Below, one piece after another: positions 9,038-29,501 of a stretch of DNA of 64,000 nt. Each line of letters begins with the position of its first letter. Within the stretch, counting starts at the first letter, position 1. The translations under genes were made by a program, and so were the position numbers. Source of the DNA: Klebsiella phage KP13-16; sequence record OP617741.1; one strand, 5' to 3'. Below the pieces are notes generated by a model. That model saw nothing but the letters and a program-made list of their open reading frames with translations, was not told the origin of the DNA and did no database searches.

Positions 9038-9045
9038 GCTTCCTT

Positions 9046-9072: not shown

Positions 9073-9075
9073 ATC

Positions 9076-12600: not shown

Positions 12601-14721
12601 TTAAACCCTTATATGTTTTACACGTTGAACAACTTCCTGCATCTTCCCCTTGTTAAAAGGTCTACTGTTAGGTGCAGATAAGTAACCTGAGACTCTCCGA
12701 ATGACGTTGATCGTTCCTTCCTCAGTATTGCCACAATCAGGGCATTCAAAGCCTTCTGCTGTTGCTTTAAACTCTCCATGAAAGCCACACTTCAGACATT
12801 TATCAACAGGTTGATTAATCCCAAAGTAATGAATATTTTCATATCCATAGTCAATCAAAGCTTCCAAGCCTTTCATGTTATTTTTGAGATTTGGTGTCTC
12901 GACATAACCTATATTACCACCTGAACTGATAAAGTCAAACCCTGATTCAACATCCCATTTAGTAAAAGGATCAACTTGTTGGTCTACAGGAACATGGAAA
13001 GAGTTAGTCAAGTATTCTCTCTTGATAGTTCCAGGAAATTTCGCATTGATTTTACTGGCAAATTTATAACACAAAGACTCCGCTGGAGTTCCGTAGATAC
13101 CAAAACCAATACCTGTTTTCTTCTTATAAGCCTCTGCCATTTCTGACATAAGACTTAAAATCTTTTTCCCGTAAGCTTTATATTCCTCTAAACTACAATT
13201 TGGATAGAGAATTTGAATTGCTTCATATAACCCTACATAACCAAAACTTGCTGAAGCATAACCTTTGTAGAAAAGTTTGTCAATAGTTTCTTCAGGATCT
13301 AGTCTAGCTAATGCTCCTTCAACAAACATCACAGGATTTTGTTTTGCTTTAGTTCCCTTAAGGCGATTAATCCTCAACATATGTGCTTCATATGCTGTTT
13401 GCATATGCTTATAGAGTTCTTCCAGGAAAAGTTTACCACTACTGACAGAATCTTTAGCTATCATTGGTAAATTCAAAGAAACTACACCAAGATTAAATCT
13501 ACCATCATATTTCTCACCTTGTTCTGTAGCAAAATAAGAAAGGAAACTACGACATCCCATGCTAGTAACGTGACCTTTTGAAGATTTTGTAACCAGTTTA
13601 TTTCTAGGGACTGAAATAAAATCTGGGTAAATTCTTTCTGCACAACACTCCATTGCTAATTGTTTAAGGTCATAATTAGGATCACCAGGATTCATGTTGA
13701 CACCTTCTTCAAGGAAGAAAATTACTTTTGGGAACACAGGCGTTACTTTATCCTTACCTAAACCCTCTTTGTGGATTTTTAGATAGTTACGAGTAATCAT
13801 TCTACCAAATTCTGAGGTATCTAAACCAAGACTAATGGTGATAAATGGAGATTGTCCATTTACACTCATTAATGTGTTAACCTGGTAGATAAGAGTTTGC
13901 ATTGCATCGTAGACATCTTGCTCTGTAAGTTGCATTGCATTTATTTTGACTTCAGCACCAAATAAATTTCTAATAAGTTTTACATTTTTATTATAAGTCA
14001 GTTCTACATATTGCTTTAAACCTGTATCAATATGTGCGCAAGTTTGTCCACCATATTGGCTAGAGGCTACAGCCTGAATAATTTGTGTCAACACTGTAGT
14101 AGCAACACCAATTGATTTAGGTTTTTCAATGAAAGCATTTCCAATATGGAAACCATTTTCTAACATGTCTTGGTAATTAACGAGACAACAGTTGCTGAGA
14201 GGGCTGATTAGATAATCTAAGTCATGAATATGTCCAAAACCGCTTGTATGCCATTCTGAGAGGTCTTTAGGTAGTATTTGAGTCAATGCTACATGCTTAC
14301 TTAAAATCCCTGCTAAGAGGTCTCTATGAGTATTTACAACGTTACTGGGTTTGTTAGCATTCTCACGAGTAAATTCTTCTGCTGTTTGTTCTAAGAAGCC
14401 AGATATGTCATTATAAAGTTTCCCATTACCTTCACGGATTTTATCTCTGTCGTGCCTATACTCAATATAAGTTCTGGCTATGTCATATGTCTTTGGATTA
14501 GACATAAGGAAATCTTCAATCATTTTTTGAACATTTGAGACTGACTTATTCTCATTGAGATTTTTAACAATATATTCTGTAACCTCGTGAGCAACAAGTT
14601 CTGCTGTGATTGATAATGAAGAGTTAGCTAGTGCTGCTTGATATATTGCATTGTAAACTTTACGTTCATCAAATTGTTCTGTGCGCCCGTCGCGTTTTAT
14701 AATTTTATGTTGATACTGCAT
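12601..14721 (-). CDS. nrdD: anaerobic ribonucleoside-triphosphate reductase (glycyl radical enzyme)
   Basis: C-terminal glycyl radical motif RVSGYL, Zn-ribbon CPDCG...C; start trimmed to MQYQHKIIKRDG with RBS GGAGG (ORF-track start at 14748 reads through upstream hairpin). Confidence 0.9.
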   Translation of the reverse strand: MQYQHKIIKRDGRTEQFDERKVYNAIYQAALANSSLSITAELVAHEVTEYIVKNLNENKSVSNVQKMIEDFLMSNPKTYDIARTYIEYRHDRDKIREGNGKLYNDISGFLEQTAEEFTRENANKPSNVVNTHRDLLAGILSKHVALTQILPKDLSEWHTSGFGHIHDLDYLISPLSNCCLVNYQDMLENGFHIGNAFIEKPKSIGVATTVLTQIIQAVASSQYGGQTCAHIDTGLKQYVELTYNKNVKLIRNLFGAEVKINAMQLTEQDVYDAMQTLIYQVNTLMSVNGQSPFITISLGLDTSEFGRMITRNYLKIHKEGLGKDKVTPVFPKVIFFLEEGVNMNPGDPNYDLKQLAMECCAERIYPDFISVPRNKLVTKSSKGHVTSMGCRSFLSYFATEQGEKYDGRFNLGVVSLNLPMIAKDSVSSGKLFLEELYKHMQTAYEAHMLRINRLKGTKAKQNPVMFVEGALARLDPEETIDKLFYKGYASASFGYVGLYEAIQILYPNCSLEEYKAYGKKILSLMSEMAEAYKKKTGIGFGIYGTPAESLCYKFASKINAKFPGTIKREYLTNSFHVPVDQQVDPFTKWDVESGFDFISSGGNIGYVETPNLKNNMKGLEALIDYGYENIHYFGINQPVDKCLKCGFHGEFKATAEGFECPDCGNTEEGTINVIRRVSGYLSAPNSRPFNKGKMQEVVQRVKHIRV

Positions 14722-14737
14722 TATTCCTCCAAAATAA

Positions 14738-14760
14738 GAAGCCAGCATTAACTGGCTTAA
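14738..14760 (-). terminator. terminator/stem-loop between yqeY-like gene and nrdD
   Basis: AAGCCAG-ttaatgc-TGGCTT hairpin followed by U-rich tract on minus strand. Confidence 0.45.
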
Positions 14761-14805: not shown

Positions 14806-15213
14806 TTAAATCAGATAAGTTTGAAGAATAGTCTTTGCTAATTGATTATCTACTGTTTTGCCAGCAGCTTTAGCAACCATGTTAATTTTACCCATGAAAC
14901 TCATAGTGATTTTATCACCATTCTGTACCGCAGTATCCAAGAAATCACGAATCTCTTCTTCACTCAACTGTGCAGGAAGATAACTTTCCATAAAAGCAAT
15001 TTCTTCTTCATACTGTTTCAGTTGTGCTTCATGACCTTCAAGACTTGCACGAGTAGATTTTACAGTAGACTTAATCAAGGCAATAGCATCTTCATCAGTT
15101 GAATTTTTATCTTGTGACAATTTTCCTAAAAGAAAGGTTAGAGTAGCAACCTTTTCTTTATCACCGGATTTACGAAAAGCAAGTTGGTCTTGTTTCATTT
15201 TCTCAATAATCAT
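14806..15213 (-). CDS. GatB/YqeY-domain protein
   Basis: helical ~135 aa; MKQDQLAFRKSGDKEKVATLTFLLGKL resembles YqeY N-terminus; start trimmed. Confidence 0.55.
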   Translation of the reverse strand: MIIEKMKQDQLAFRKSGDKEKVATLTFLLGKLSQDKNSTDEDAIALIKSTVKSTRASLEGHEAQLKQYEEEIAFMESYLPAQLSEEEIRDFLDTAVQNGDKITMSFMGKINMVAKAAGKTVDNQLAKTILQTYLI

Positions 15214-15845
15214 TAATATTCTCCTATTCCACAATAAAGAGTTTCTCTTGTATTATTTAAATCTTCAGAAACTCTATTAATTTCTTTTTGTAAGATATCC
15301 TTATACTGAGGATATTTTTCTATCAAAGTTAAACCTTGATTTATATACAACATTTGCCAAGCTCTATGTGCTTCAACAGGATCTGTGAAACCATGTATGG
15401 CAATATCATGAAACCTAGCCCTATATCGAGGTACTTTCTGATATTTATTTTTCTGTTCAGAAACTCCCAATGGTAAATTATTTTTAGAGTATCTTTTTAT
15501 AATATAATTATTTAAATCTTTACCTACAAAACCACAGGTGCTTGGAGAGTATATTTTACTAACCCCAGATAAGAGATCCTTGTCCAGTTCCTTTCCTTCC
15601 CAATCTTGGGTTTCCATCCAGGCACGAAAATTACCAAATGTCAACCATTCTTCACAAACACTACAACCTTTATAAGTAGGAAATCTTCTTTGGTAATTTT
15701 CACTATAACAACGCCTTAGCATATTCGTCCAACGATCATAATATGGATCTCGCCAAAATACAACTTCTTTACCATTCATACGTTTACTTTTTTGAGTTAT
15801 ATCTTCTAGATCATTGTATCCCTTACCAAAAAGTAATTTATTCAT
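15213..15845 (-). CDS. AP2-domain DNA-binding protein (homing-endonuclease-associated type), paralog of 20239-20901
   Basis: LPLGVS...KYQKVPRYRARF...GFTDPVEAHRAW = AP2 domain; N-terminal W..RW..M..RC..C..CEEW block shared with paralog. Confidence 0.5.
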   Translation of the reverse strand: MNKLLFGKGYNDLEDITQKSKRMNGKEVVFWRDPYYDRWTNMLRRCYSENYQRRFPTYKGCSVCEEWLTFGNFRAWMETQDWEGKELDKDLLSGVSKIYSPSTCGFVGKDLNNYIIKRYSKNNLPLGVSEQKNKYQKVPRYRARFHDIAIHGFTDPVEAHRAWQMLYINQGLTLIEKYPQYKDILQKEINRVSEDLNNTRETLYCGIGEY

Positions 15846-17134
15846 TACAATTCTATCTCAAGTAAGTAATCAAGTCTAACTTGACTCAGGTCAAAGACTA
15901 CAATCTCATCATTTCTCACCCCAGAGTATCCAGCCTTAGCCCAATAAGATTGGTATCCTTTTGGAGGGCGTTGACTTGTTGGTCCTGTTGGGGTATAAGC
16001 ATTTCCAACAGCCACTGAAACTAGAAACATGTAAACTTTTCCATTCCCCTGACCACCACCCGTATAATACATGTTATCACAATATTGGAGACTTTTTGAA
16101 GATTGATTTGCGAAATACAATCCTGTTGAGAACATGGCCCCTGCCTTAACACCAGGACTATCTTTAGGCATCATTAACCCTTTACAGAAAATAGATAACA
16201 AATTAGCTACACGTGTTCCGTGCCACAGTTCATGAACATTACCATACTCTGTGATAGCTTTATCAAATGGTGCTTGCTGATTTCCAAGATTAATTTTATA
16301 GATATTCTTAACTTTAGAACCCATGATGCGACCGCCGTGTTGGGCATTTTTACTTTCATTGTAGTAATTAACAATACGATCAATTGTAGCAGAATCTTCA
16401 ACATGAGAGATACCAAAATTAAAGATTTTTTCTACTTCAACTTCTTCTTTAGGTTTATCTTCCTGATTCTTTTTAAGTTCTTCAATAAGGTCTAATGTTT
16501 CCAGAAGTGCTTTACAGATTTCACGTTGTTCGTCAATGTTTTTGTGACTAAACAGCAAGTGACGTTTATCACGTGTAGTTGCAACTTTATTAGGAATAAG
16601 AACAAAATAAGAATCATTTAAAGTTAAGATCTCATCTTCACCTTTACCACTCTTTTCATATTCATCCAAAAGGGATTCAATATTACCAAGATGGATCATT
16701 GCTTCTTCCACAGCAGCTTTCTTTACAACTCCTAAAGGAGTCTTAAACAGACCATCTTTTTCATCATATTTAATGTTAGTAGAACTGGTGATATTATGGA
16801 TGTTTGCTTTAGCAATTGCTTGAATAAGATTACGACTTGTGTCGTCTTTACAATCAATTTGCTTAAGTGCAATGTCTACTACGTTAACTTTTTGAGTCAA
16901 CCCAGTTTCACCAGAGACAGCTTCTAGTTGTGCTTCTTTATAACCTTTCTTGATTTTAGATGCAACAAGACTGTCAAACTTCTTTTTACCACCAGAGTAG
17001 GAGGTAGTTTGAACCCCGCCACCTACCCGACCAAAACGAACTGCAATATTTCCAACGTCATCTAAGGTTGCTTCATAGAATTTATTGTTATTATTCTTTG
17101 AATCAAACATGATTAGCATTTTACTCTCAGACAT
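15845..17134 (-). CDS. poly(ADP-ribose) polymerase-like protein (WGR + PARP catalytic domain)
   Basis: N-terminal WGR (KFYEATL...RFGRVG); C-terminal PARP fold with H-Y-E triad context: LWHGTRVANLLSI..GL, GLYFANQSSKSLQYC, NDEIVVFDLSQVRLDYLLEI. Confidence 0.75.
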   Translation of the reverse strand: MSESKMLIMFDSKNNNNKFYEATLDDVGNIAVRFGRVGGGVQTTSYSGGKKKFDSLVASKIKKGYKEAQLEAVSGETGLTQKVNVVDIALKQIDCKDDTSRNLIQAIAKANIHNITSSTNIKYDEKDGLFKTPLGVVKKAAVEEAMIHLGNIESLLDEYEKSGKGEDEILTLNDSYFVLIPNKVATTRDKRHLLFSHKNIDEQREICKALLETLDLIEELKKNQEDKPKEEVEVEKIFNFGISHVEDSATIDRIVNYYNESKNAQHGGRIMGSKVKNIYKINLGNQQAPFDKAITEYGNVHELWHGTRVANLLSIFCKGLMMPKDSPGVKAGAMFSTGLYFANQSSKSLQYCDNMYYTGGGQGNGKVYMFLVSVAVGNAYTPTGPTSQRPPKGYQSYWAKAGYSGVRNDEIVVFDLSQVRLDYLLEIEL

Positions 17135-17149
17135 TTCACCCCCTGTTAA

Positions 17150-17175
17150 GTGAATAAAAGGGCTTTCGCCCTTAA
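17150..17175 (-). terminator. terminator hairpin upstream of PARP gene
   Basis: AAGGGC-tttc-GCCCTT hairpin; U-run on minus strand. Confidence 0.5.
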
Positions 17176-17609
17176 AGTTTTTCGAGAAGTTTCAACACAG
17201 CTTCTTTATCAAGAACAGTTGAACCGAGGAGTGCTTCAACCTCTTCAATTTGGAATACATCTCCAAGTTGGTGGGTATTGACTGGAGGACGGATCTTATC
17301 TTTGTGGTTCAGAAAAAGATCTTCTTCAAATCCATCTCGAACATATTTCCCTTTCAAATCTGTAATTTCAACAAGCTTAATCAACTTATGAAGTTTTTCA
17401 ACACGAAACTCAGGTGCTACTTTAGCTTCAACTTCTTCACGGAGGTCATCCAAAGAGCTTCGAACAGTATCAAGTTTCTCATAAACTTCTTCAAAGAAGC
17501 TAGAATCTAAAATATATTCCATATCTTTAAGAAACTCTTTGGGAGAGTTTTCAGCATACTCTTTAAGATCTTCAAACCAATCATTAATTTTATCAAACAG
17601 TGGATTCAT
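17172..17609 (-). CDS. hypothetical acidic helical protein (145 aa)
   Basis: ORF track. Confidence 0.35.
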   Translation of the reverse strand: MNPLFDKINDWFEDLKEYAENSPKEFLKDMEYILDSSFFEEVYEKLDTVRSSLDDLREEVEAKVAPEFRVEKLHKLIKLVEITDLKGKYVRDGFEEDLFLNHKDKIRPPVNTHQLGDVFQIEEVEALLGSTVLDKEAVLKLLEKL

Positions 17610-17636
17610 AAATTACTCCTCTAATTAGTACTACAA

Positions 17637-17996
17637 TTATACCTTTTCAAAATCAATATCATCGCAATCGTTGACATCTTCATAAACGTCACCAAAGTCT
17701 TTAATTGCATCTTTAATAATCTCCATATAGATTTGGTGGTCTCCCCAGTGACCTATGCTAAAGATAATCTTCTCCCCATCATAAATCTCTTTATAATCTA
17801 CAGAACATGAGTGTGTCATAAAGATGATCCTAGACTCTTTTGCAGTAACAAAACCTAACCAAAAATGGTTAAAATCTGAGGTAGAAATTTCTCCTTTAAT
17901 TCGAGTGAAATCTCGTAGAGCAGAATACACTGCCCCATAAACTTCTAAAGCTTTATCTTTTGAACAACAAACAAACACTTTATGATCAACACTCAC
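17637..17996 (-). CDS. hypothetical protein (119 aa)
   Basis: ORF track. Confidence 0.35.
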   Translation of the reverse strand: MSVDHKVFVCCSKDKALEVYGAVYSALRDFTRIKGEISTSDFNHFWLGFVTAKESRIIFMTHSCSVDYKEIYDGEKIIFSIGHWGDHQIYMEIIKDAIKDFGDVYEDVNDCDDIDFEKV

Positions 17997-18008
17997 AATA
18001 TGCCTCCC

Positions 18009-18656
18009 TTAAAAGGTCTGATTTAGCTCCGTTAGAGTCATAACAGAACCTTCTTGAGTCAGAATAAACTCATTGTCTCCAACAGAGTCAAGAGTATAAC
18101 TTCCTTTTGGTGTTTTTACAAGGAAAGAATCCACATTTACAGTAGTGAAACCAAAAGAATTTTCCTCAAAATATCCATTTTTAACCTCTGGAGTCAAACC
18201 AATGCAGATAGCATCACCTTTAACACATAAAGCTTTTACATTTTTAATGGTATATTTTTCACCTGTTGAATAGTAAACGGTAATGTCAGTTTTCTTACGA
18301 ACTGGGACTGGTTTACGCTTCTTGTGAAAACGTGGTTTTGCTACTTTAATTTCTTTATTCATTTCTTCTCCTAAAAGTGCATTAACAAATTCTTCTGGTT
18401 TAACATAATAGTATTCATTATTAGACATGGCATCTAAGTGCCATCCGGTGAGTGTAGTCCCGGCATTATGACTTACAAGACACCATATATCTTTTTCATC
18501 ATAACTATTGAAATTATTGAAAAATCTAATAAAATCTTTATAACTCCAGTCTTCTGAAACATCAAGAGAAAGAAATATTTTTCCTAAAATACTACGATAA
18601 TTATCTTCACCATAAAATTTAACAAATTCATTTTTTAAAACATAGCCTTTATACAT
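18009..18656 (-). CDS. hypothetical protein (215 aa)
   Basis: ORF track. Confidence 0.35.
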   Translation of the reverse strand: MYKGYVLKNEFVKFYGEDNYRSILGKIFLSLDVSEDWSYKDFIRFFNNFNSYDEKDIWCLVSHNAGTTLTGWHLDAMSNNEYYYVKPEEFVNALLGEEMNKEIKVAKPRFHKKRKPVPVRKKTDITVYYSTGEKYTIKNVKALCVKGDAICIGLTPEVKNGYFEENSFGFTTVNVDSFLVKTPKGSYTLDSVGDNEFILTQEGSVMTLTELNQTF

Positions 18657-18775
18657 ATTCTATTTACCTATACGATCAATTAAAGTTAAGTCCAATACCA
18701 CCGGAAGGAATAACAACCATCCAGGATAATCTTCTTGAAATAAGTGTCTTAAGACAATATAACTAATTACTGTAA

Positions 18776-19705
18776 TCACTTCTTATCTCCACTTTTACTT
18801 TTCATAATAGAGCTTAAAGATACAAGCGGGGTTTTGGGTACAGGTTTCTTTCTAGGGACATAATTTTTGACAAATGGATTAAGATTTTTAGCAATCTCTG
18901 GGATGGACATTCCTAAGAGTTTGCTTGCTTCTACCATTTTTGATCCCACCTCTTTTCCTACAATTACCATGTTATCTTTAGTATAACCTTGGGTTTGGTC
19001 TAACAGGATAAAGACTTTTTGAGACAGTTCAATTGTCTCTCCTGTTAATTTGCACTTAGTTCCTGAAAACTTAGCTTTAAACTCTGCAAAACTAACTGTA
19101 AACTCTTTCTTTTCCGCAGAGGCATGTTTAGCCATATCAGAATAGTAAGAGGCAATGCGTACATCTGGGGCAATCTGTTTATCTGACATCTTCAGGACTC
19201 CTTGATCATTACGGGATAGTTCAATTTTTTGTGTTAAGACACCATTCAAGTTATCATAAAAATTTGTATAGTCAATATCTTTAAAATAATTTTTATAAAC
19301 ATTAGATTCAAATTTAATTAAATGGTTGTATTTATAAGATAAAAACTTTTTATACCCTGGTGTAACTTTCTCTTGAACCACTCTCAAGATTGCTTCAGAT
19401 GTTTCATTGATCCTTACTACTTGTACTTCGGTTTTGTCAAGAGCATAATCTTTTATTCTATTTACTGCTGCTGAAGTTAAACAAACATTCCCTCGTTCAT
19501 AACCGAGTTTATCATCTAAACGTTCAATGGATATCTTATGTTTATCCTCATCAAAGGTAACACCAGTATAATCACACTTACCGTCATTCCGTAAGAAAAG
19601 TACTTTCATATCTTCAAGGGTTAATTTGAAATCAATACCACGCTTCCTGGCATCTTTTTTCTTAGATTCAAAACGTTTTTTGAGTTCTTGTTCGTCTAAC
19701 TTCAT
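18776..19705 (-). CDS. HNH-family putative homing endonuclease
   Basis: GKCDYTGV...SIERLDDKLGYERGNVCLTSAAVNRIK resembles phage HNH (CxxCG...SxDRID..GY..NV...N..K) variant; extended C-terminal DNA-binding-like tail. Confidence 0.45.
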   Translation of the reverse strand: MKLDEQELKKRFESKKKDARKRGIDFKLTLEDMKVLFLRNDGKCDYTGVTFDEDKHKISIERLDDKLGYERGNVCLTSAAVNRIKDYALDKTEVQVVRINETSEAILRVVQEKVTPGYKKFLSYKYNHLIKFESNVYKNYFKDIDYTNFYDNLNGVLTQKIELSRNDQGVLKMSDKQIAPDVRIASYYSDMAKHASAEKKEFTVSFAEFKAKFSGTKCKLTGETIELSQKVFILLDQTQGYTKDNMVIVGKEVGSKMVEASKLLGMSIPEIAKNLNPFVKNYVPRKKPVPKTPLVSLSSIMKSKSGDKK

Positions 19706-19714
19706 ATAGACCTC

Positions 19715-20230
19715 TTATTTGATCACAGTGGCATTTTCAGGGATTTCAGCTTCATCAAGTACATAGATGGTAACATTGTACCCGGCTTCACACAATGTCT
19801 TTTTGATAATATCTTCAACAGAAGACCACTCTGCTCCTCCAAGACCTGCACCAAGTTTGGGAAGTCCAATTTTAAGATCCTGATTTTCAAAAAGCATTAG
19901 CTGTTTAGACATAGCTTTGAAAGAAGATTCAAGCTTATCTAAATCTGTATTTGGTTTTCCATCCTCACGTTTCCACCAACCCCACCGTCCGTATAAATTA
20001 TAAATACTTAAATTATACAATGGAGAATGGGCATATGAGAAATCTCCAAATTTTTTAGGGTCTCCTTTAATAGTTGAATCATCTGCAATAGCGACTTCCG
20101 GGAAAGCTTTATCTAAAAGTGGGGCAATCCCACGTTTACGTGCATTAAAACAGTTACATTGTTGTGCAATAACATTTACTTCTCCACTTTTTGCAGCCAA
20201 TAACAAATCCATCACTTTATATTTCAACAT
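19715..20230 (-). CDS. macro domain protein, TARG1/OARD1/DarG-like ADP-ribose hydrolase
   Basis: NVIAQQCNCFNARKRGIAPLL, LPKLGAGLGGAEWSSVEDII and C-terminal ITIYVL parallel TARG1 blocks AHCISEDCRMGAGIA, MPRIGCGLDRLQWENV, ITVYTL. Confidence 0.6.
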   Translation of the reverse strand: MLKYKVMDLLLAAKSGEVNVIAQQCNCFNARKRGIAPLLDKAFPEVAIADDSTIKGDPKKFGDFSYAHSPLYNLSIYNLYGRWGWWKREDGKPNTDLDKLESSFKAMSKQLMLFENQDLKIGLPKLGAGLGGAEWSSVEDIIKKTLCEAGYNVTIYVLDEAEIPENATVIK

Positions 20231-20238
20231 ATTACCCC

Positions 20239-20901
20239 CTATAATTTTAATGTCTCTCTATTTAAACTTATATCTTCTTTTATATCTTGGATCCTATCAA
20301 GTAAGGCAGTTTCAACAACCTTATTAAAGTGTGCAGATTCTTTATATTTTTGTAAGCTTTCCTTGATTGCAATAATTTTATAATCTTGCCACTGTTTATG
20401 AGCAAGGTCTGGTGAGTTATGATAACCTAGATAAACAATCTTACCAGATACATGACAATAAGCTTGGAACCTATCCCTATGATGAGGCTTTTTCTTCTTT
20501 TTAAGACTTACCCCTAGTGGGAGGTGTCCTCTTGCAGATCTACTATCTGTTAATAGGCAGTTAATATAGTTCGGAACCATAACGCAAGTCTCTTTACTAT
20601 AAAGCTTATTACCTTTAATTAATATATCCTTATCAATGCATAAATTATCAAAATCCTTAGATATGGCCCAAGCTTTAAAATTTGAAAAGTATTTCCACTC
20701 TTCACTTACAGTACAACCTTCATAGACAAAATAATATGGATCTTTTTGTTTTAAATTATAACATCTTCTAAGAATGTCTTTCCATCGGCTATATATCGGA
20801 CAGAGCCAAATTTGCTTCCATTTACCATCTTCAAATCTATTTATAGAGACAGGGTCTACACTATCATTAATGCCATAGTTATGTACAAGTTTTTGTTTCA
20901 A
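20239..20901 (-). CDS. AP2-domain DNA-binding protein, paralog of 15213-15845
   Basis: LPLGVSLKKKKKPHHRDRFQAY...LGYHNSPDLAHKQW AP2 domain; shared N-terminal W..RW..ILRRCY..C..EEW block. Confidence 0.5.
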   Translation of the reverse strand: MKQKLVHNYGINDSVDPVSINRFEDGKWKQIWLCPIYSRWKDILRRCYNLKQKDPYYFVYEGCTVSEEWKYFSNFKAWAISKDFDNLCIDKDILIKGNKLYSKETCVMVPNYINCLLTDSRSARGHLPLGVSLKKKKKPHHRDRFQAYCHVSGKIVYLGYHNSPDLAHKQWQDYKIIAIKESLQKYKESAHFNKVVETALLDRIQDIKEDISLNRETLKL

Positions 20902-20915
20902 TCAAATCTCCAACT

Positions 20916-21299
20916 TTATAGACTAACTTGTTCTGCATCCTTCATCTCCATAAGTTTATCTAAATAATCTTTTGCCATCTTCTTATAATCTTCCGGGAAG
21001 TATTCACGATAGTAGTCTTCAAGAAGCATCATGATGCTTGGCTCTGGTCCACTTTCAATACTTGCACATTGCGGGCGCAAGTCGAAGAAATTCTTTTCTT
21101 TCTGTAACTTTGCTTCTTCGATTAACTTATCAACTTCTTTAATTTCAAGTTTAATCTTATGACAAGTTTTACTGAAATAACTTTGATCCATCTTTTTCCT
21201 GTTCACCGAACATTTTCGAAAGGAATGCAAATCTCTGATAAGTTCATTTCTAAAATTATTCAAAGCTATAACTAGTTTTTTGTTTTTATTCATTACCAA
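20916..21299 (-). CDS. hypothetical protein; paralog of 23683-23958
   Basis: shared block FR...VNRK.....FS.T......EI.E.DKLI...KL with ORF 23683-23958. Confidence 0.35.
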   Translation of the reverse strand: MVMNKNKKLVIALNNFRNELIRDLHSFRKCSVNRKKMDQSYFSKTCHKIKLEIKEVDKLIEEAKLQKEKNFFDLRPQCASIESGPEPSIMMLLEDYYREYFPEDYKKMAKDYLDKLMEMKDAEQVSL

Positions 21300-21532
21300 G
21301 GTGCCTCTTCTAATTGGGAATGGGAGATGCCCATCATATCTGCCAGATCGTCTTTTGTCAACAATTTTCTTTCAAACAAATTTGTAACCAGCAAAACAAA
21401 CATCTCACCTACGTTATTATTAGATTGCTCTAATAGTAACTGCTCAAGGTTAAAAGTTTTAGTATCACTATAATCCTCATTCGTAAGGAAGAAATGCTTT
21501 TGTTGTGGGTTTAGCATAGGTCTTTTCCTCAA
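21293..21532 (-). CDS. hypothetical protein (79 aa)
   Basis: ORF track. Confidence 0.3.
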   Translation of the reverse strand: MRKRPMLNPQQKHFFLTNEDYSDTKTFNLEQLLLEQSNNNVGEMFVLLVTNLFERKLLTKDDLADMMGISHSQLEEAPW

Positions 21533-21740
21533 ATCTCAGTTCGCCGTTAAGTTTTTCAATTCTATGTGGGAGAACATCCTGGCCCCACCAAGGCTTTTCA
21601 TGAATACGATAACTCCAGACTGTCATGAAAGAGTCTTCTTCAGTGCCTTCTCCTTTGATTCTAACAGTCTTATTATAGATATCCCGGATAGTAGCTTCTA
21701 TCCCATCTACTAAGACAATCTCATGAATTCTGTAAGGCAT
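21477..21740 (-). CDS. hypothetical protein (~87 aa)
   Basis: ORF track; start trimmed to MPYRIHE to limit overlap with nadR-like gene. Confidence 0.3.
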   Translation of the reverse strand: MPYRIHEIVLVDGIEATIRDIYNKTVRIKGEGTEEDSFMTVWSYRIHEKPWWGQDVLPHRIEKLNGELRFEEKTYAKPTTKAFLPYE

Positions 21741-21754
21741 CTGGTATTCATTAG

Positions 21755-23356
21755 TCACAAATATGCTCCAAGAATATGTTCTGAATAAACCTCTTCTAGA
21801 AAATCTTCCCAAAATTCCTTATCTACTGAAGAAGGATAATGAGAGTTTTCTGCTAAAATTTCAACTTCCTGTACAACCTTCTCAAGTTCTTCCTGAACCT
21901 CATTGAAAGGCATGTTACCAGTCTTAACAGATAAAATCAAGGGATTTTGTTCCATAGGATAAACAAGATCACCATGCTTATAAATGTTAATAAGTTGATA
22001 TCCACCACGAAGAGCGTGGCTCAGAGCTTTCCAATCCACACCTTGATTAGCCTCAGCCAAACGTGCTCTATCGCCATATTCTTCCCACAGTTTAAATAAA
22101 GACGTCTTCATTTCTTTTACTGAGACTGTTTGTTGAAACTTTCTTCCAAGAACTTCATAAAAGATTTGATTTACACCATTTTTATCCGTAGCAAAGATCC
22201 AATATGCAAACTCATTGAGTGGAAAATATTCTTTGAAATCACCAACCTTTTTAGAATCATCTATTGTTTTAATACATTCTACAACTTCACGTAATGCTGC
22301 AAGCCTGGAGCCTTTAATTCCATACTTAGATGCTTGTTTCCTTACATAACCAAAAAGCCCTGTCAGCTTTTTAGTATAAAAACGGTGACGATTGTCACGA
22401 ATATATTGCCACGTTTCAGAATTGGTTACGAGCTTACTATCTGTATCTTGCAAACGGAGAGGATCAGCCACCCACTCAACTTCTGGGGAAAGGTATAGCA
22501 CCATGTCGTAGAAGTTATGAGCTTCTTCAACAGCCAACGACATAAACATACCATCATTGTAGCTCACTTTACCAGCACAAATTGCAGAAAAATGTGTTAT
22601 AAGATTGGTTGTATCTGAAATATGCACCACATGTGCCTGATTTGAGTTACTAAATTCCTCAATACGGTGGATCATAGCAATCTTAAGATATGCTTCACGA
22701 TCCATTAAAAATTCACTGCCATTGTACATCTGTTCGCAAATATGCCGCCCTACTTCGGGTGTTGATGTTGTTCCATAGTGCTGTGCTAGAAGCTCAGTCA
22801 TAGTGGATTTGCCAGTGCTCTCAACACCAATGATAGCTACACGTTTTACAAAACGAGGACGAGCTTGATCTGAAAGATACTCGAAGTTATCACGTAGATT
22901 AGTACGAATACGTGTTGCAGAGATATCCACTCCTGTACGCTCTGCATCCAACACAACATGCTCCACCTCTGGGAAATGCTCAGAGAAGTACTCAGTATAC
23001 TCCGGCTCAGAAGAGAAAGCATGTGTCAACACTTCCCCTTCTGGGATTTTAGCACGAATCAACTCAGCATAAGCCTTACCACCTTCTGGATAACCAGGAA
23101 TATCAGACTCATCCACATAATCTACAATCACTTTGTGTTGTAACCCTGAGTCTTGAATTAAAGATTTAAGATCCAATAAACGCTGGGTTAAACCTAGACG
23201 GTCTTGCATCCAAGGTGTTTGAGTGTCGTTAAACTTCTGGTCAAACGACAGAAACAGGTATAGCCGATCAATACCTGAATCTACAGCCATACGAATGAAG
23301 TTGACGTGTCCTGCTGTCAGGGGTGCAAATTTACCTAAAATTAAGCCTACGTTCAT
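21755..23356 (-). CDS. nadR: NadR-like bifunctional NMN adenylyltransferase / ribosylnicotinamide kinase with C-terminal extension
   Basis: N-terminal GKFAPLTAGHVNFI (HxGH-type nucleotidyltransferase); central P-loop IIGVESTGKSTMTELLA of RNK domain; ~150 aa unassigned C-terminus. Confidence 0.75.
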   Translation of the reverse strand: MNVGLILGKFAPLTAGHVNFIRMAVDSGIDRLYLFLSFDQKFNDTQTPWMQDRLGLTQRLLDLKSLIQDSGLQHKVIVDYVDESDIPGYPEGGKAYAELIRAKIPEGEVLTHAFSSEPEYTEYFSEHFPEVEHVVLDAERTGVDISATRIRTNLRDNFEYLSDQARPRFVKRVAIIGVESTGKSTMTELLAQHYGTTSTPEVGRHICEQMYNGSEFLMDREAYLKIAMIHRIEEFSNSNQAHVVHISDTTNLITHFSAICAGKVSYNDGMFMSLAVEEAHNFYDMVLYLSPEVEWVADPLRLQDTDSKLVTNSETWQYIRDNRHRFYTKKLTGLFGYVRKQASKYGIKGSRLAALREVVECIKTIDDSKKVGDFKEYFPLNEFAYWIFATDKNGVNQIFYEVLGRKFQQTVSVKEMKTSLFKLWEEYGDRARLAEANQGVDWKALSHALRGGYQLINIYKHGDLVYPMEQNPLILSVKTGNMPFNEVQEELEKVVQEVEILAENSHYPSSVDKEFWEDFLEEVYSEHILGAYL

Positions 23357-23682
23357 GGGGTCTCCTTTGTCTAATCAGTTTGTATCTTAGATTACTATTA
23401 AGTAATTGTCAACTGTTAATTGGTTAATTAGGTATGTAGTTTGTTTTACACTTACAATGATACACCTCTAGGTAGGATAATCAAGGAAATAATAGTAAAT
23501 CGTATAACTACTATGGACATAGTATCCATAATACCTCCTATAAAAGAAAAGCTATCCGTCCCTTCCTATCTAACGATAGTCAGGAACGAATAGCTATAGA
23601 ATCTCCCCTCGCTTCGCTCGGCACCTTGTAGGGTTAGGGTAGCATATTTTTCAGCGAAAGTCAATATCCCTGAGACATTTAT

Positions 23683-23958
23683 TTAAGGCAGTGGAAAGTA
23701 AATTGTGTTGGACTCGTAATCGTAGTAGTATTGTATTCCAGTTTCACGAGATACACGTAGCGCCAGCTTAACTCCTGCAATGAGTTTGTCCATTTCAGCA
23801 ATCTCTTTACGGAAGCGTGTTACTGTGTGAGAGAATGCACTATGTGGCACCCATTTACGGTTTACACGATCACGTTTGAAGTGACGGAAATCTTCAATGA
23901 CGTTATTGCGCTGTTTACGCAGTACAGCCATCAGGTGGTAATACGGATGTTTGTTCAT
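23683..23958 (-). CDS. hypothetical protein; paralog of 20916-21299
   Basis: shared motif block with 20916-21299; GC-richer codon usage. Confidence 0.35.
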   Translation of the reverse strand: MNKHPYYHLMAVLRKQRNNVIEDFRHFKRDRVNRKWVPHSAFSHTVTRFRKEIAEMDKLIAGVKLALRVSRETGIQYYYDYESNTIYFPLP

Positions 23959-23969
23959 TATTTTACTCC

Positions 23970-24248
23970 TTACTTAGGGAACACAGAACCGGGGGTAGCT
24001 TCTTCCATTTGCAGAAGCTGTTCACACATACCATACACCTCTCCGTATGTGATCTCGGTTATACCTGTGTCGTCACAAATCATTTCACACAGTTTATTAA
24101 TGTCTATGCCACCGCAACGCTGCTCGGACTTACGCATCCCTTCACCTTCTTTCCAGTCAACTGGAGACTGGAGAAGAATCAGTTCTCCATTACCCAGTTC
24201 AACCAGGTAATCTGCAATATTTTCGCGTGGGGTATATTGTTCAGTCAT
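23970..24248 (-). CDS. hypothetical acidic protein (92 aa)
   Basis: ORF track. Confidence 0.35.
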   Translation of the reverse strand: MTEQYTPRENIADYLVELGNGELILLQSPVDWKEGEGMRKSEQRCGGIDINKLCEMICDDTGITEITYGEVYGMCEQLLQMEEATPGSVFPK

Positions 24249-24670
24249 TTTATCTCCTTAACAAAATCAGATGCACGATCAAACCAGAATGTGCAATGTT
24301 TTTCAGTGGCTTCTATTAAAGCATCAAATGCTTCTTGTGTCAACTCCACAGGGGTATACCGATTTGGACGCTCATAGTATAAACCAGTATAAGTCCTTTC
24401 AAAGTCTTTCTGGCGTTCTTTCAGGCCTTCCACGGTTAAGCCTACCATATACCCATCCTGTTTACTACCCCAGCCTGCTTCAGATTCGATAACAGGGATA
24501 CAGAAGCCATAAAAACGCTCTGTATCGCTCTCCACCGGGTTTTTAGCAGAAGCCGCACCGTTTTCCCATCCCTCTTTAAAAATCGTATACAGCTTCTCGT
24601 AGAGGCTTCTATTCGAGCCTTCTTTGTATGGGTGAAGTTCTTCAAACTTCGCACGAATAGTGTTTGTCAT
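24245..24670 (-). CDS. hypothetical protein (141 aa)
   Basis: ORF track. Confidence 0.35.
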   Translation of the reverse strand: MTNTIRAKFEELHPYKEGSNRSLYEKLYTIFKEGWENGAASAKNPVESDTERFYGFCIPVIESEAGWGSKQDGYMVGLTVEGLKERQKDFERTYTGLYYERPNRYTPVELTQEAFDALIEATEKHCTFWFDRASDFVKEIK

Positions 24671-24810
24671 AAAAGCTCCTTACTCCATTAATGAAAAAAT
24701 CAAACAAAGAATTTGTCCACCAATACAAATAAATCCTGCGGTAAGGTTATCAAAACCCCAAATGAAAACATTTGCTAAAATCATCAATAAAATATTAAGA
24801 CCAAACCACA

Positions 24811-25137
24811 TCATTCACCTCCTTTAGGGATGTATTGCGGCATAGGCATGTATGCCACTACAGGCTCCCAGTCAAAGTAGAAACGACCATTAATCACTGC
24901 AAACTTACCACTACCACCCTGTACAACTTGGCAAACACCGTATTCCCCATCAGCCATGATGACAACCCAGTTGCCGAATGGCATGTTGTGGATACCATCA
25001 ACATCAATCCAAGGATGTTGTAAACTGTAAATCTTGTTTACGACCTCTGTGAAGTCTGGATCATACAAACCGAGGTCATGCGCAATGTTCAACAACATTT
25101 CTTTGTACAGTTCTTCACGTGTCATAGATTCAGCCAT
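24811..25137 (-). CDS. hypothetical protein (108 aa)
   Basis: ORF track. Confidence 0.35.
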   Translation of the reverse strand: MAESMTREELYKEMLLNIAHDLGLYDPDFTEVVNKIYSLQHPWIDVDGIHNMPFGNWVVIMADGEYGVCQVVQGGSGKFAVINGRFYFDWEPVVAYMPMPQYIPKGGE

Positions 25138-25514
25138 TAGCGTACTTCCAAGCTTGGGATTAAGGTTTGTGGAGCAAAGATAACACGAGTGTGATCAACA
25201 CTCACCTGAGCACCATCAATTTGCTCAATGAAATAGGTGGTATCCGTAGAGAGTCCCATATAATGTTTCTTCACAGAACCGTTAGCCTTATCACGACAAG
25301 TGATGATCAGTGTACGATCAGTGCTACTGTTATCTTTCGCACAGTAACCTTCAATACGCATTAACTCTTTGTCTGTACGAGTGTTGATGAAGTGGGTGGA
25401 ACGCAACACTTCGAAGTTATCGCCAGCGGTGGCGATGTTACGACTTGCAACGTCAGCAGCTTGTTCACAACCAGCCAAACCCAAGCATAAAGCAATCAGC
25501 AGAATCTTTTTCAT
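25137..25514 (-). CDS. lipoprotein
   Basis: lipobox MKKILLIALCLGLAGCEQ. Confidence 0.5.
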   Translation of the reverse strand: MKKILLIALCLGLAGCEQAADVASRNIATAGDNFEVLRSTHFINTRTDKELMRIEGYCAKDNSSTDRTLIITCRDKANGSVKKHYMGLSTDTTYFIEQIDGAQVSVDHTRVIFAPQTLIPSLEVR

Positions 25515-25753
25515 TTTACTCTCCTTCTTTATTCACAATTTTGTAGTATGGAAGTTTCTTAATCAACTCTTCCGGTATACCGCTTTCAGACCAAGTGGCT
25601 CCACCGTCTGTAGAGGCGTAGCCCTTGTTGCCAACGTACTTACGCATGATAGCACGAAACATGTTTTGATAGATAGTCATTTACAAATACACCCACCAGA
25701 GAAAATACTACCATAACATTTCTCGCACATAACATCTTCAATAAATAATATTT

Positions 25754-26924: not shown

Positions 26925-27230
26925 GTGTGTATCTTAACCAAGAAAGCAGGTCAATCTCATAATGAGTACCTTTCAGGCATTTTGTATTCTTCTGATGCGT
27001 GTCGTGTGAAGCTGGCTGACCTTCGTCACAACATAGATATTCGTCGTTTAAAAGGTTTGCGAGAAAAAGACTTTGCAAGAATGCAAAAGTATCTTAAGAT
27101 GTACAAAACTATTGAGATGATGCTTGAATGGGATGTTTTGCATAGCCCAGCAGCTTACTTTTCTCTTGGGGATTATTATGAACATCGTGTTAGTCACATT
27201 GAGGAACTCTTGAATGATAAAGGCAACTAA
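26925..27230 (+). pseudogene. 5'-truncated HD-domain (SpoT/small alarmone hydrolase-like) remnant
   Basis: contains RVKLADLRHNIDIRRL (cf. SpoT KLADRLHNMRTL) but lacks upstream His-Asp half; sits at a strand-switch point. Confidence 0.35.
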
Positions 27231-27501
27231 AAACATTTCAGAAACTGTTGACGGTTATGGGATCATAATTGCTGTCCATGGTGACAATGAAAAGTGGTTA
27301 GCTTCTTTTGAGGAGGACGAAGACCGTAACATCCGTCTGGATGCACCAATCAAGGTTTTGCATCAAGTTGGTGAACAGAAAACATGCTTGAGGTCTTACA
27401 AAGAGTATAGTGTGACGAATGATCTAATAAAAATGCTTGACTTTGTAATTGAGTTGTTCGAAAATGCACCAAAAGACATCAAACGTGTACTTGCATTCTG
27501 A
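27214..27501 (+). CDS. hypothetical protein (95 aa)
   Basis: ORF track. Confidence 0.35.
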   Translation: MIKATKNISETVDGYGIIIAVHGDNEKWLASFEEDEDRNIRLDAPIKVLHQVGEQKTCLRSYKEYSVTNDLIKMLDFVIELFENAPKDIKRVLAF

Positions 27502-27512
27502 GGAGAACTAAA

Positions 27513-27782
27513 ATGTCCATTGGAAAACTTGAGGTTGGAGATTTACTTTTAACACAGACTTATAGTGGGAAAGAGATTGTTGAGATTTGCCAGTACCGTG
27601 GAGAGACAGGATCTTTAATGTATACGCTTTATCATCCAGATTTACTGTTAAAATCAAATCTTGAACGTTTTGTAAAAGATACAGATTCAATGCCATACTG
27701 TATGAGTATTGTTCGTAAGAGTAACGCAGAAAAATATCAATATATTATTGATATGATTTTAAAAAGTTCTCAGGAGGGATAA
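27513..27782 (+). CDS. hypothetical protein (89 aa)
   Basis: ORF track; RBS GGAGAAC. Confidence 0.35.
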   Translation: MSIGKLEVGDLLLTQTYSGKEIVEICQYRGETGSLMYTLYHPDLLLKSNLERFVKDTDSMPYCMSIVRKSNAEKYQYIIDMILKSSQEG

Positions 27783-28249
27783 TGGCTATTCCAGATTATG
27801 CAGATCAACGTTCCTACAACCGTTTTCGTAAAAGTTTTGTAGGTAGTTTTCATGGTGAAAATGGCAGTAGTTATAGGATGTATTGGAGTCCTGAATGTAA
27901 CACACAACCAACTAAGATGGTCTTTAGCTCAGGTGCTCCAATTTGTGCATACTGTGGTCATGAAGGTTTACCTTTACAACCTTATATTGAAGAAGGTGAT
28001 TATCAGGTTTACGGTTATGCTTGTGTATGTAAAGGTGCCATGGATGAAGAAGCTTGGCAACAAGAACAAGCTACATTGATAAGCAACCATCAAAAAGAAA
28101 TGGAACTACTTTTAGAACGTAAACCCAAAACAAATCCTGCTGTGATTAAGGGTTTAATTAATACTCTGACTCGTCGTCTCCAAGAAGCTGAAACTTTAGA
28201 TGACGTCAACACAATCTTAGATAAATTAAAATCTATTCACGAAGATTGA
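27782..28249 (+). CDS. hypothetical Cys-rich protein (155 aa)
   Basis: ORF track; CAYCGHEG...CVCKG. Confidence 0.35.
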   Translation: MAIPDYADQRSYNRFRKSFVGSFHGENGSSYRMYWSPECNTQPTKMVFSSGAPICAYCGHEGLPLQPYIEEGDYQVYGYACVCKGAMDEEAWQQEQATLISNHQKEMELLLERKPKTNPAVIKGLINTLTRRLQEAETLDDVNTILDKLKSIHED

Positions 28250-28275
28250 TTTTTATTTAAATTCAGGAGTTTATT

Positions 28276-28865: not shown

Positions 28866-28952
28866 ACCTTTAGAGTATCATGGGACGAATAAACCTTACA
28901 CAGCAATGGATTTAATCCTTGCTAAACAAAAACTTATGAATGAGGTAAAATA

Positions 28953-29493: not shown

Positions 29494-29501
29494 GAGGAAA
29501 T

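Follow-up and report, generated by a model that had tools for sequence, protein, structure and literature searches.

Klebsiella phage KP13-16 carries genes for a predicted PARP and a SCO6735-like macrodomain protein beside a NadR–RlaP recombination chimera

The genome of Klebsiella phage KP13-16 is FBKp34-like in its backbone. In the 64,000-nucleotide stretch of record OP617741.1 analysed here (the window), open reading frames (ORFs) for a PARP (15845-17134), a macrodomain protein (19715-20230) and a NadR-like protein (21755-23356) lie within 7.5 kb, all on the minus strand. The question raised by this locus is whether the three genes form one co-evolved island for counter-defence and ADP-ribose signalling, as proposed in a preliminary description, in which NadR would refill an NAD+ pool drained by NADases of the host (or by PARP activity), and the macrodomain would erase the marks of host DarT. 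Profile searches with each ORF identified a PARP, a macrodomain family and, in the third frame, NadR (residues 1-308) followed by RlaP (residues 309-533); components of all three kinds have already been described in phages (PMC7824862, PMC13464706, PMC13309987). The region is interpreted, with moderate confidence, as a mosaic block of early accessory genes in which a PARP/macrodomain writer/eraser pair stands beside a NadR recombination scar.

The NadR-like ORF (533 aa) is an in-frame fusion. Its residues 1-308 (22433-23356, minus strand) share 97.7% identity with residues 1-308 of the 355-aa KP2025 NadR, and are homologous to Bas30_86 of the NARP3 system (best PDB match 9x6f, E = 1.8e-50; query residues 3-308 to chain residues 10-304 of 357). 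They comprise a full NMN adenylyltransferase (NMNAT) domain and a ribosylnicotinamide kinase (RNK) truncated in its LID region, with NMNAT motifs as well as the Walker A/B motifs of the RNK present (GKFAPLTAGH at residue 8, ISATRIR at 145, GVESTGKST at 177 and VVHISDTT at 243) and, as in other phage NadRs, no HTH domain. The kinase ends at position 135 of 164 in the AAA_28 profile, 291 of 325 in TIGR01526 and residue 304 of 357 in Bas30_86, and is thus short of about 47-50 C-terminal residues. Residues 309-533 (21755-22431, minus strand) are the C-terminal helical portion only of RlaP (RNA-ligase-associated Pol-beta nucleotidyltransferase, PF10127), matching phrog_388 at 3.3e-70 over positions 119-338 of the 351 in the profile; the nucleotidyltransferase N-terminus that forms the catalytic part of intact RlaP (positions 1-118) is missing. 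This portion is essentially identical to FBKp34 gp101, and has 100% identity with the C-terminal two-thirds of the intact 318-aa RlaP carried by relatives; RlaP is broken in both FBKp34 (by an in-frame stop) and KP13-16 (by the chimera). In an AF2 model, pLDDT was 85-93 for the NMNAT domain and below 50 for residues 291-358.

The protein alignment changes parent at 'DTDSK|L', and megablast places the switch from FBKp34-like to KP2025-like sequence at 22432-22441 (minus strand), where nucleotide comparison found a 10-nt microhomology, GATAGTAAGC, common to the nadR and RlaP parents. In the mosaic map of the window the FBKp34-like segment 10010-22441 is followed by a KP2025-like segment (22432-25680) and a further FBKp34-like one (26934-29643). 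None of the best 120 of 687 homologues covers more than 62% of the chimeric ORF, the parent types being NadR proteins of about 355 aa and RlaP proteins of about 318 aa; no other NadR–RlaP fusion was found among these 120 or the cluster members listed, and a length of 533 aa was confined to the KP13-16 protein among 40 cluster members and 15 listed proteins. The ORF is therefore a one-off recombination chimera and not, as had been supposed, a bifunctional NMNAT/RNK: the NMNAT domain and Walker motifs are present, the kinase is truncated, and the remainder is RlaP. A patch of about 4.3 kb (right-hand boundary approximate) from a KP2025/KP13-26-type phage would have taken the place of resident DNA. 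Its left crossover, at the microhomology, would have fused nadR (first 925 nt) in frame to resident RlaP (last 687 nt), with loss of the last ~47 kinase residues, of the catalytic N-terminus of RlaP and of pnuC, which lay downstream. The NMNAT domain may, at most, still work (NMN + ATP to NAD+); the truncated kinase could be active despite its lost end, because all NR-site residues of Bas30_86 named in PMC13464706, which run up to D275, precede the break. A promoter-like site (TTGACA-17-TAAGAT; 23384-23412, minus strand) was matched just upstream of the chimeric ORF.

Because the junction inside this ORF is also a mosaic boundary, the adjacency of the three genes is a recombination scar and not an evolved module, and the proposed island is largely refuted. 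In its favour are the close spacing on one strand, the intact NMNAT domain, the NAD/ADP-ribose cargo (NadR, PnuC and two DUF4326 genes) that KP2025-type phages hold in the corresponding slot, and the fact that NadR/PnuC (NARP3) is an established anti-Sir2-HerA system (PMC13464706). Against this, the adjacency was made by a single patch recombination and the fusion is specific to KP13-16 among the homologues compared. Relative to NARP3 (Bas30_86 with the PnuC Bas30_87) and to H. influenzae and E. coli NadR, the chimera has a shortened kinase and a foreign RlaP fragment attached; PnuC, the partner needed in the NARP3 pathway (PMC13464706), is encoded 0.75 kb downstream of nadR in KP2025 and was found nowhere in the window. 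NadR occurred within 10 kb of PARP at 0 of 43 viral PARP loci, and FBKp34, the closest relative, has a native full NAD salvage island (NAMPT–PRS–NadR–PnuC) in another part of its genome, about 65 kb away. One co-evolved three-gene island is accordingly judged highly improbable.

The proposed ADP-ribosyl writer, in contrast to the NadR claim, held up. The 429-aa product of 15845-17134 was confirmed at the sequence level as a genuine WGR–regulatory–catalytic PARP, its three domains all exceeding the curated Pfam cut-offs: WGR (residues 6-69, 16928-17119, motif RFGRVG at residue 33; PF05406, 30.8 bits, 3.3e-07, cut-off 22), the helical regulatory domain (residues 102-227, 16454-16831; PF02877, 34.7 bits, 2.2e-08, cut-off 26.8) and the ART catalytic domain (15848-16390; Pfam PARP, 3.6e-23). 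The 'LWHGSR / GIYFAD / YNEYIVYD' motifs of human PARP1 align to the KP13-16 protein (phmmer against PARP1 catalytic fragments, 1.1e-17), and the triad H305/Y340/E410 is intact and unchanged across 36 homologues. The protein is 94% identical to the FBKp34 'poly [ADP-ribose] polymerase' and 44-57% identical to fungal PARPs, the Yarrowia-clade proteins matching at 57% over 61% of the query; Yarrowia Pyl1 is an active PARP (PMC12412787). With PARP1-3-type enzymes (Herpetosiphon aurantiacus PARP, C. difficile CD160 PARP, Pyl1, human PARP2/3) it has in common the domain architecture, the H-Y-E triad and the S-K-S…Y NAD+ site; it differs from them in being a predicted enzyme of a lytic Klebsiella myophage and in having neither zinc fingers nor a BRCT domain, a PARP2/3-like minimal architecture. 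PARPs are rare among phages (15 of 50,697 records), and our literature search found no experiments on any phage PARP. Among the ORFs scanned no PARG gene was detected, and the nearest candidate eraser is the macrodomain protein.

This stand-alone protein (171 aa; 19715-20230, minus strand) had been described as an eraser of TARG1/DarG type, matching TARG1 block by block. Its membership of the TARG1/DarG (ALC1-type) clade was confirmed: the ORF matches phrog_335 at 1.1e-42 (a Pfam scan gave no match), its AF2 model (pLDDT 95) has TARG1, BT1257 and DarG as top Foldseek matches, and PADLOC DarG is matched at 3.2e-08. The finer assignment did not survive. The family profile searched against PDB ranked BT1257 (9.5e-22) and SCO6735 of S. 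coelicolor (4.7e-17) above TARG1 (3e-14) and DarG (5e-10), and the TARG1 catalytic residues K84 and D125 are both absent, aligning to R82 and G131, although the TARG1-like C-terminus ('VTIYVL') is present; on alignment, loss of this Lys/Asp pair is the result that the preliminary description had itself named as counting against its reading. A TARG1-type macrodomain was rejected on these two grounds, the missing dyad and the stronger SCO6735 family match, and the protein belongs to the SCO6735/BT1257 subclass, with which it shares fold, Asn26, the Gly-rich loop and 'VTIYVL', and from which it differs in being phage-encoded and PARP-linked. It resembles AdfM (PhiKZ gp104; PMC13309987), as described there, in being a stand-alone phage macrodomain, but it lacks the catalytic Lys of DarG and (by description) AdfM, and the DarT-binding domain of DarG.

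Codon 82 (19985-19987, minus strand), at the position of SCO6735 Q85, TARG1 K84 and DarG K80, is CGG (Arg) in KP13-16 and CAG (Gln) in FBKp34, the sole nucleotide difference between the two genes over 516 nt. Gln was found in 41/41 other family members, in 20/20 PARP-linked viral macrodomains and in FBKp34 and 05F01; in all, the KP13-16 protein alone has Arg, against Gln in 63/63 relatives compared. In SCO6735, which reverses protein and thymidine-DNA ADP-ribosylation in vitro, Q85A and Q85E abolish activity (PMC9411070). Since this essential Gln is replaced, the KP13-16 eraser may be inactive or altered.

The PARP and macrodomain genes, 2.6 kb apart, keep their order in FBKp34-like phages (identical in FBKp34 and L052-L054), and the linkage recurs in 05F01 (about 5 kb apart), related Logan contigs and one IMG/VR phage clade. 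In the IMG/VR set, 20 of 43 PARP loci carry a Gln-type ALC1-clade macrodomain gene on the PARP strand, 66-2862 bp downstream and separated by a varying number of genes; because these 20 form one clade (PARP pairwise identity 63-100%), independent support for linkage amounts to about two lineages. No macrodomain gene was found within 10 kb at the closest non-Klebsiella PARP relatives (L007-L013, L015). The macrodomain family occurs in 662 phage records compared with 15 for PARP, and its role is therefore mainly PARP-independent. In other phages the genes found between PARP and macrodomain include a DenV-like glycosylase and UvdE, and an ATP-dependent DNA ligase and an SbcD-like phosphoesterase adjoin PARP; such neighbourhoods suggest a tie to DNA repair, not to counter-defence. 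Within the KP13-16 window the PARP neighbours are nucleotide-metabolism and homing endonuclease genes, with no repair genes.

In the favoured model, the two genes would be a plausible writer/eraser pair in one predicted early transcription unit. The WGR domain would bind DNA nicks or ends arising from phage replication, recombination, repair or host-DNA breakdown, relieving the autoinhibition by the helical domain; DNA is known to activate bacterial PARPs (PMC8120803). With host NAD+ as substrate, the enzyme could then attach ADP-ribose to acidic residues (its own and those of proteins associated with DNA ends) or to DNA termini, and the SCO6735-like family would strip protein-proximal and/or base-linked DNA ADP-ribose. 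A serious competitor, which we hold possible but do not favour, is that the macrodomain protein acts apart from the PARP as an AdfM-like anti-DarT2 factor, stripping thymidine-linked ADP-ribose from phage DNA. The abundance of the family in PARP-less phages and the DarG match agree with this, a phage macrodomain has been shown to be an anti-DarT2 factor (PMC13309987), SCO6735, which among characterised proteins is its closest relative, removes DarT marks efficiently and relieves DarT toxicity (PMC9411070), and macrodomain alleles swap as cassettes in near-identical phages (48% identity, against at least 90% for PARP), as expected of arms-race genes. The gene order kept in two phage lineages, R82 and the missing DarT-binding C-terminal domain (NCBIfam DarG, 27 bits, cut-off 250) speak against it.

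It is unlikely that the PARP instead serves host takeover in the manner of T4 Alt/ModA/ModB, modifying host RNA polymerase or translation machinery early while the macrodomain limits collateral modification of phage proteins. PMC7824862 had put forward such a role for the PARPs of phages, and the role would suit the early sigma-70-type promoter region and the adjoining Srd-like anti-sigma-type gene, but the WGR and autoinhibitory helical domains, absent from Alt/Mod enzymes, imply activation by nucleic-acid breaks, and the repair-gene neighbourhoods of other phage PARPs argue likewise. PMC7824862 also proposed a link by which the macrodomain would be a Poa1p-like ADP-ribose-1''-phosphate phosphatase, one of a set of RNA-repair proteins that includes RlaP and RNA ligase. 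The database label 'phosphatase', the ancestral order RlaP – three small genes – macrodomain, the RNA ligase gene in the window and the presence of Poa1p among both profile (4.4e-09) and fold matches are in keeping with this; yet Poa1p ranks under BT1257, SCO6735, TARG1 and DarG, no Tpt1/KptA-type 2'-phosphotransferase came to light among the ORFs scanned, and RlaP is broken in FBKp34 and KP13-16 with the macrodomain gene intact in both, making this reading improbable.

The writer/eraser unit of the favoured model would start at the best sigma-70-like promoter match (TTGACA-17-TATGAT, 11/12; 21333-21361, minus strand) and end at a terminator-like hairpin after YqeY (14739-14758, minus strand), the homologous FBKp34 positions having an annotated promoter and terminator, respectively. 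Behind the promoter-like site the order is hyp127 – HNH220 – macrodomain – Srd/HNH309 – three hypotheticals – PARP – HNH210 – YqeY. Co-transcription from this one site is weakly supported, because promoter-like sites were in total no commoner than in shuffled sequence. HNH220, an HNH-like homing-endonuclease-type gene directly upstream of the macrodomain gene (220 aa; 20239-20901, minus strand; phrog_953, 1.3e-72), is 100% identical in nucleotides to FBKp34 and absent from relatives with a 48%-identical, 181-aa macrodomain allele; the two genes form an allele cassette. The Srd-like/endonuclease VII-type HNH protein between macrodomain and PARP (309 aa; 18776-19705, minus strand; phrog_3118, 1.9e-45; phrog_1400, 1.2e-19) keeps its position in FBKp34-like contigs. 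A second HNH-like gene (210 aa; 15213-15845, minus strand; phrog_953, 1e-61) abuts the PARP stop codon, where FBKp34 has a different 155-aa gene. The RNA ligase gene of the window lies at 7349-8599.

The three ORFs, each labelled 'hypothetical protein' in GenBank, belonged to a minus-strand gene block; upstream of it, at approximately 26.9 kb, lay a divergent early-promoter region where the GC skew switches. The nearest complete genome in the phage collection was that of vB_KpM_FBKp34 (Stephanstirmvirinae), with 96.7% nucleotide identity over window 15000-22441. The block opened with the 533-aa chimeric ORF (21755-23356), followed by small ORFs, an HNH-like gene of 220 aa (663 nt, phrog_953; 20239-20901), the macro ORF (171 aa, 516 nt; 19715-20230), an Srd/HNH-like gene of 309 aa, three hypothetical genes, the PARP gene (15845-17134), a second HNH-like gene of 210 aa (phrog_953; 15213-15845), YqeY and NrdD. 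The macro and PARP genes were thus flanked by two paralogous HNH-like genes. Scanning of the window for promoters and terminators gave no enrichment over shuffled sequence, and only top-scoring sites coinciding with FBKp34 annotations were used. These were the best minus-strand sigma-70-like site (21361-21333), upstream of macro and PARP, and a minus-strand terminator-like hairpin downstream of both (14758-14739). At the far end of the block, the window NrdD was without a stretch of about 0.9 kb that is inserted in its FBKp34 counterpart (window 12609-14193 versus 2713-5199 in L001, the FBKp34 backbone locus).

The 533-aa ORF was divided by PHROGs profiles into an NMNAT family part (residues 1-318, 1.3e-102) and a phrog_388 nucleotidyltransferase part (residues 306-532), the latter, RlaP-derived, covering positions 119-338 only of the 351 in the profile. 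The megablast subject switched inside the ORF, from FBKp34 (up to window 22441) to KP2025/KP13-26 (from 22432), the phages carrying the NadR-parent sequence. In the protein alignment, residues 1-308 corresponded to the first 308 of the 355 aa of KP2025 NadR, and at 'DTDSK|L' the match passed to gp101 of FBKp34, which represents the C-terminal portion of a nucleotidyltransferase of RlaP type. At the crossover the 10-nt sequence GATAGTAAGC was common to both parents. KP2025-like sequence extended from window 22432 to at least 25680, and FBKp34-like backbone was clear again from 26934. A NadR–RlaP fusion was sought as a family, and no protein spanned both halves among the best 120 of 687 homologues; the length of 533 aa was seen only for the KP13-16 protein among the cluster members compared. 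Intact RlaP genes of 318 aa hold this position in relatives, and in FBKp34 an in-frame stop after codon 64 breaks the RlaP gene in two (gp100/gp101, L001 12460-13416).

The preliminary description had read this ORF as a bifunctional NadR-like NMN adenylyltransferase/ribosylnicotinamide kinase (NMNAT/RNK). The NMNAT domain was complete (GKFAPLTAGH at residue 8 and ISATRIR at residue 145, representing the (H/T)xGH and ISxTxxR motifs), but the RNK domain was not, its alignment stopping at position 304 of 357 in Bas30_86 (PDB 9x6f; the NadR-like enzyme of NARP3), 291 of 325 in TIGR01526 and 135 of 164 in AAA_28. The RNK domain lacked the latter half of the LID, the final strand and the C-terminal helix, the terminal 47 aa of the NadR parent having been replaced. 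The RlaP (PF10127) part was devoid of the N-terminal Pol-beta-type catalytic core, and the 'GSHLYG…DTD' segment of FBKp34 gp100 was absent. In the AF2 model the NMNAT domain was confidently predicted (pLDDT 85-93, residues 1-140) and the kinase core moderately so, with values below 50 at residues 291-358. A domain-level label such as "NadR, rebuilds NAD+" for this ORF would mis-annotate a recombination scar. On related phage contigs (protein P0192, 667 aa, from a contig of 143,888 bp), NadR carried an intein-like insertion of roughly 250-310 aa, starting directly after the kinase P-loop 'GVES' and ending near 'ITGN|CGKST'.

The three genes had been described as looking like a combined island of counter-defence and ADP-ribose signalling. 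None of 43 IMG/VR PARP loci contained NadR within 10 kb of PARP, and the proximity of NadR in KP13-16 was a by-product of one patch recombination; judged by gene neighbourhoods, NadR is not part of a module with PARP and macro. PnuC, with which NadR forms the published NARP3 counter-defence (PMC13464706), was not found in the 64-kb window either (best E-value 0.81 in tblastn with the KP2025 PnuC); in KP2025, pnuC was located 0.75 kb downstream of nadR. In FBKp34, genes for NAMPT, PRPP synthetase, NadR, PnuC, RNA ligase and a SIR2-family protein were found at 109.5-121.4 kb (L051), the first four within 109.5-115.6 kb; this NadR shared only 39% identity with the chimera. KP2025-type phages carried NadR, PnuC, two DUF4326 genes and a helicase (5794-8105 in the KP2025 locus L002) in the interval bounded by the divergent early promoters and YqeY, and the equivalent slot in FBKp34-type phages was occupied by RlaP, macro and PARP. 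These gene contents mark the slot as a hotspot of cargo related to NAD and ADP-ribose. Elsewhere in the window, a DUF4326 protein (Pfam 3.5e-18) was encoded at 54082-54429 on the minus strand, with adjoining small ORFs resembling the KP2025 DUF4326 region; a connection of DUF4326 with NAD+/ADP-ribose systems is predicted by Iyer et al. (2021, PMC7824862).

The PARP assignment was borne out, since all three Pfam domains, in canonical order, scored above their gathering cut-offs (PARP (PF00644) 82.5, PARP_reg 34.7 and WGR 30.8 bits, against 26.7, 26.8 and 22, respectively) and the H-Y-E triad was present, H305, Y340 and E410 aligning to H862, Y896 and E988 of PARP1 and being unchanged across 36 homologues. 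In phmmer searches the phage PARP matched human PARP1 catalytic fragments (1.1e-17), and its alignment with PARP2 spanned WGR to ART. PARPs were rare in phages, with tblastn matches in 15 of 50,697 phage records: FBKp34 (94%), 05F01 (78%), four Xanthomonas/Stenotrophomonas jumbo phages (33-34%), seven Cellulophaga phage records and two uncultured megaphages. The large protein collection contained many further relatives, encoded by contigs of about 140 kb. The closest cellular homologues were, unexpectedly, fungal (P0102-P0126): a Yarrowia protein matched the C-terminal 61% of the query at 57% identity, and proteins of Smittium, Coemansia and Hesseltinella matched it in full length at 44-49%, which may point to horizontal gene transfer linking phage-like and fungal lineages. 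The Yarrowia PARP Pyl1 is experimentally active (PMC12412787). Phage PARPs have been recognised in computational work (Iyer et al. 2021, PMC7824862), and no experimental work on them, enzyme assays included, was found in the literature searched.

The macro ORF gave no Pfam match at E ≤ 0.01 and was therefore classified by PHROGs (phrog_335 'phosphatase', 1e-42), PDB profile and fold searches. A family profile built from 42 homologues, with reference proteins left out, was searched against PDB and matched BT1257 (9.5e-22), SCO6735 (4.7e-17), TARG1 (3e-14), DarG (5e-10) and Poa1p (4e-09); every match at E ≤ 0.01 was an ALC1-type macrodomain, and none was of the MacroD or PARG type. The AF2 model had a pLDDT of 95, and the top 17 Foldseek matches were to TARG1, BT1257, DarG, Poa1p and SCO6735. 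The agreement of profile and fold searches upheld the earlier placement in the TARG1/DarG (ALC1-type) clade, together with the TARG1-like, 'ITVYTL-like' C-terminus. A narrower assignment to TARG1 did not hold, as the catalytic dyad Lys84/Asp125 of TARG1 was absent on alignment, the aligned residues being R82 and G131. Family members had Q and G/A/S at these two positions, with Gln in 41 of the 41 other members at the position of TARG1 K84, DarG K80 and SCO6735 Q85, and N26 was invariant. In SCO6735, likewise, Q85 replaces the Lys and N27 is conserved, whereas the KP13-16 macro keeps the Asn (N26) but has R82. DarG, in contrast, combines a catalytic Lys80 with a C-terminal DarT-binding domain, whereas the KP13-16 macro, 171 aa long, carries a residue other than Lys at the catalytic position. 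The NCBIfam DarG equivalog scored 27.3 bits against a cut-off of 250, and the PADLOC DarG match was confined to positions 1-145 of 329, which form the macro part. Placed in the scheme of five subclasses of PMC6397177, the macro family is SCO6735-like; the KP13-16 protein itself, with its R82, probably belongs there too and is not TARG1-like or DarG. The DarTG counter-factor AdfB of ICP1 was also considered as a homologue and rejected, being a DarT binder of 77 aa.

The Arg82 codon (19985-19987, minus strand) was created by a CAG-to-CGG change, the sole nucleotide difference from FBKp34 in the 516-nt macro gene. The neighbouring 663-nt HNH-like gene was identical to that of FBKp34, and flanking genes differed by 1.6-3.8%. 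R82 was present in both the GenBank record and a 137,268-bp Logan assembly (SRR21837335) to which the window was 100% identical, although both probably derive from the same reads and are hence not independent. Either substitution of the SCO6735 Gln, Q85A or Q85E, abolished activity towards DNA as well as protein substrates (PMC9411070). If the PARP–macro pair is functional, the natural Q82R/Q82 pair of KP13-16 and FBKp34 offers a ready active-site comparison for the SCO6735-type mechanism. Relatives with a PARP at least 90% identical carried a different macro allele of 181 aa, 48% identical and without the HNH-like gene (9001-9546 in L052, an FBKp34-like Logan contig). The order RlaP … macro … PARP … YqeY was kept in FBKp34-like contigs, even in those with this allele, which indicates that the macro was swapped as a cassette beside a conserved PARP and suggests homing-endonuclease-associated cassette exchange.

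With the NadR leg and the 'island' set aside, the PARP and the ALC1-clade macro remained from the preliminary description as a real pair of proteins that are plausibly linked. A Gln-type ALC1-clade macro was found 66-2862 bp downstream of PARP on the same strand in 20 of the 43 IMG/VR loci; reading these as 20 independent co-occurrences was rejected, as all belonged to one clade with PARPs of about 500 aa (63-100% identity). Within 10 kb of PARP, no macro was found in the clade of about 420 aa, the one closest to the window, and the macro family occurred in 662 phage records, so that most members work without a PARP. In the 500-aa clade (IMG/VR loci L023-L047), PARP and the macro followed each other in a conserved order with zero to five genes between them, among these a DenV-like pyrimidine-dimer glycosylase (Pyr_excise), UvdE, radical SAM and HNH genes. 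For the 420-aa clade, as for Cellulophaga phages, the genes beside PARP included an ATP-dependent DNA ligase and an SbcD-like phosphoesterase (Metallophos). Ten PARP-flanking ORFs scanned from six 420-aa-clade loci gave ligase, Metallophos and HNH genes, and no PARG or ARH erasers.

These repair-gene neighbours, together with the WGR/autoinhibitory architecture and the fact that bacterial PARPs depend on DNA (PMC8120803), favour a DNA-lesion or DNA-end role for phage PARPs over a purely counter-defence one, a preference derived from neighbourhoods outside the KP13-16 genome. Under the DNA-lesion reading, the PARP would act while phage DNA is being replicated and repaired, marking proteins at nicks or ends or capping the termini, and the macro would reset the mark, in a cycle mechanistically akin to eukaryotic PARP1-3/TARG1; Q82R in KP13-16 would be a natural active-site variant of the eraser. 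The structural and evolutionary statements on PARP, macro and chimera are held with high confidence, and the writer/eraser mechanism is tentative, with chances somewhat short of even. The full proposal, of a virus-encoded, DNA-lesion-triggered ADP-ribosylation cycle that is related to fungal PARPs by horizontal transfer and has a variant eraser in KP13-16, is more doubtful still, at perhaps one chance in a few. If functional, the pair would represent the first studied poly(ADP-ribose)-type signalling in a bacteriophage, and a tractable system on the Klebsiella/E. coli scale for what a minimal WGR-PARP senses and modifies. Phage PARPs and macros (PMC7824862), NARP3 (PMC13464706) and the phage macrodomain AdfM (PMC13309987) are of kinds already known; new here are the chimera, the Q82R active-site change, the cassette-like exchange of macro alleles and the PARP–repair-gene–macro synteny in one phage clade. 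Since KP13-16 appears by name in a phage-therapy paper (PMC10241881), it is of some practical use to know which accessory genes it carries intact.

Further features were observed elsewhere in the window. A tellurite-resistance-type Ter cluster (TelA, two TerD, a vWA-TerF-like protein and TerC; 2087-10053, minus strand) had an RNA ligase gene (7349-8599) embedded in it. A 192-aa ORF (56529-57107, minus strand) had a weak match to DNA_processg_A (DprA/SLOG-type fold; E-value 6.6e-05, below the gathering score), and a UvrD-like helicase of 1198 aa (34481-38077, plus strand) was interrupted by intein-type elements, with matches to Hint, Intein_splicing and LAGLIDADG.
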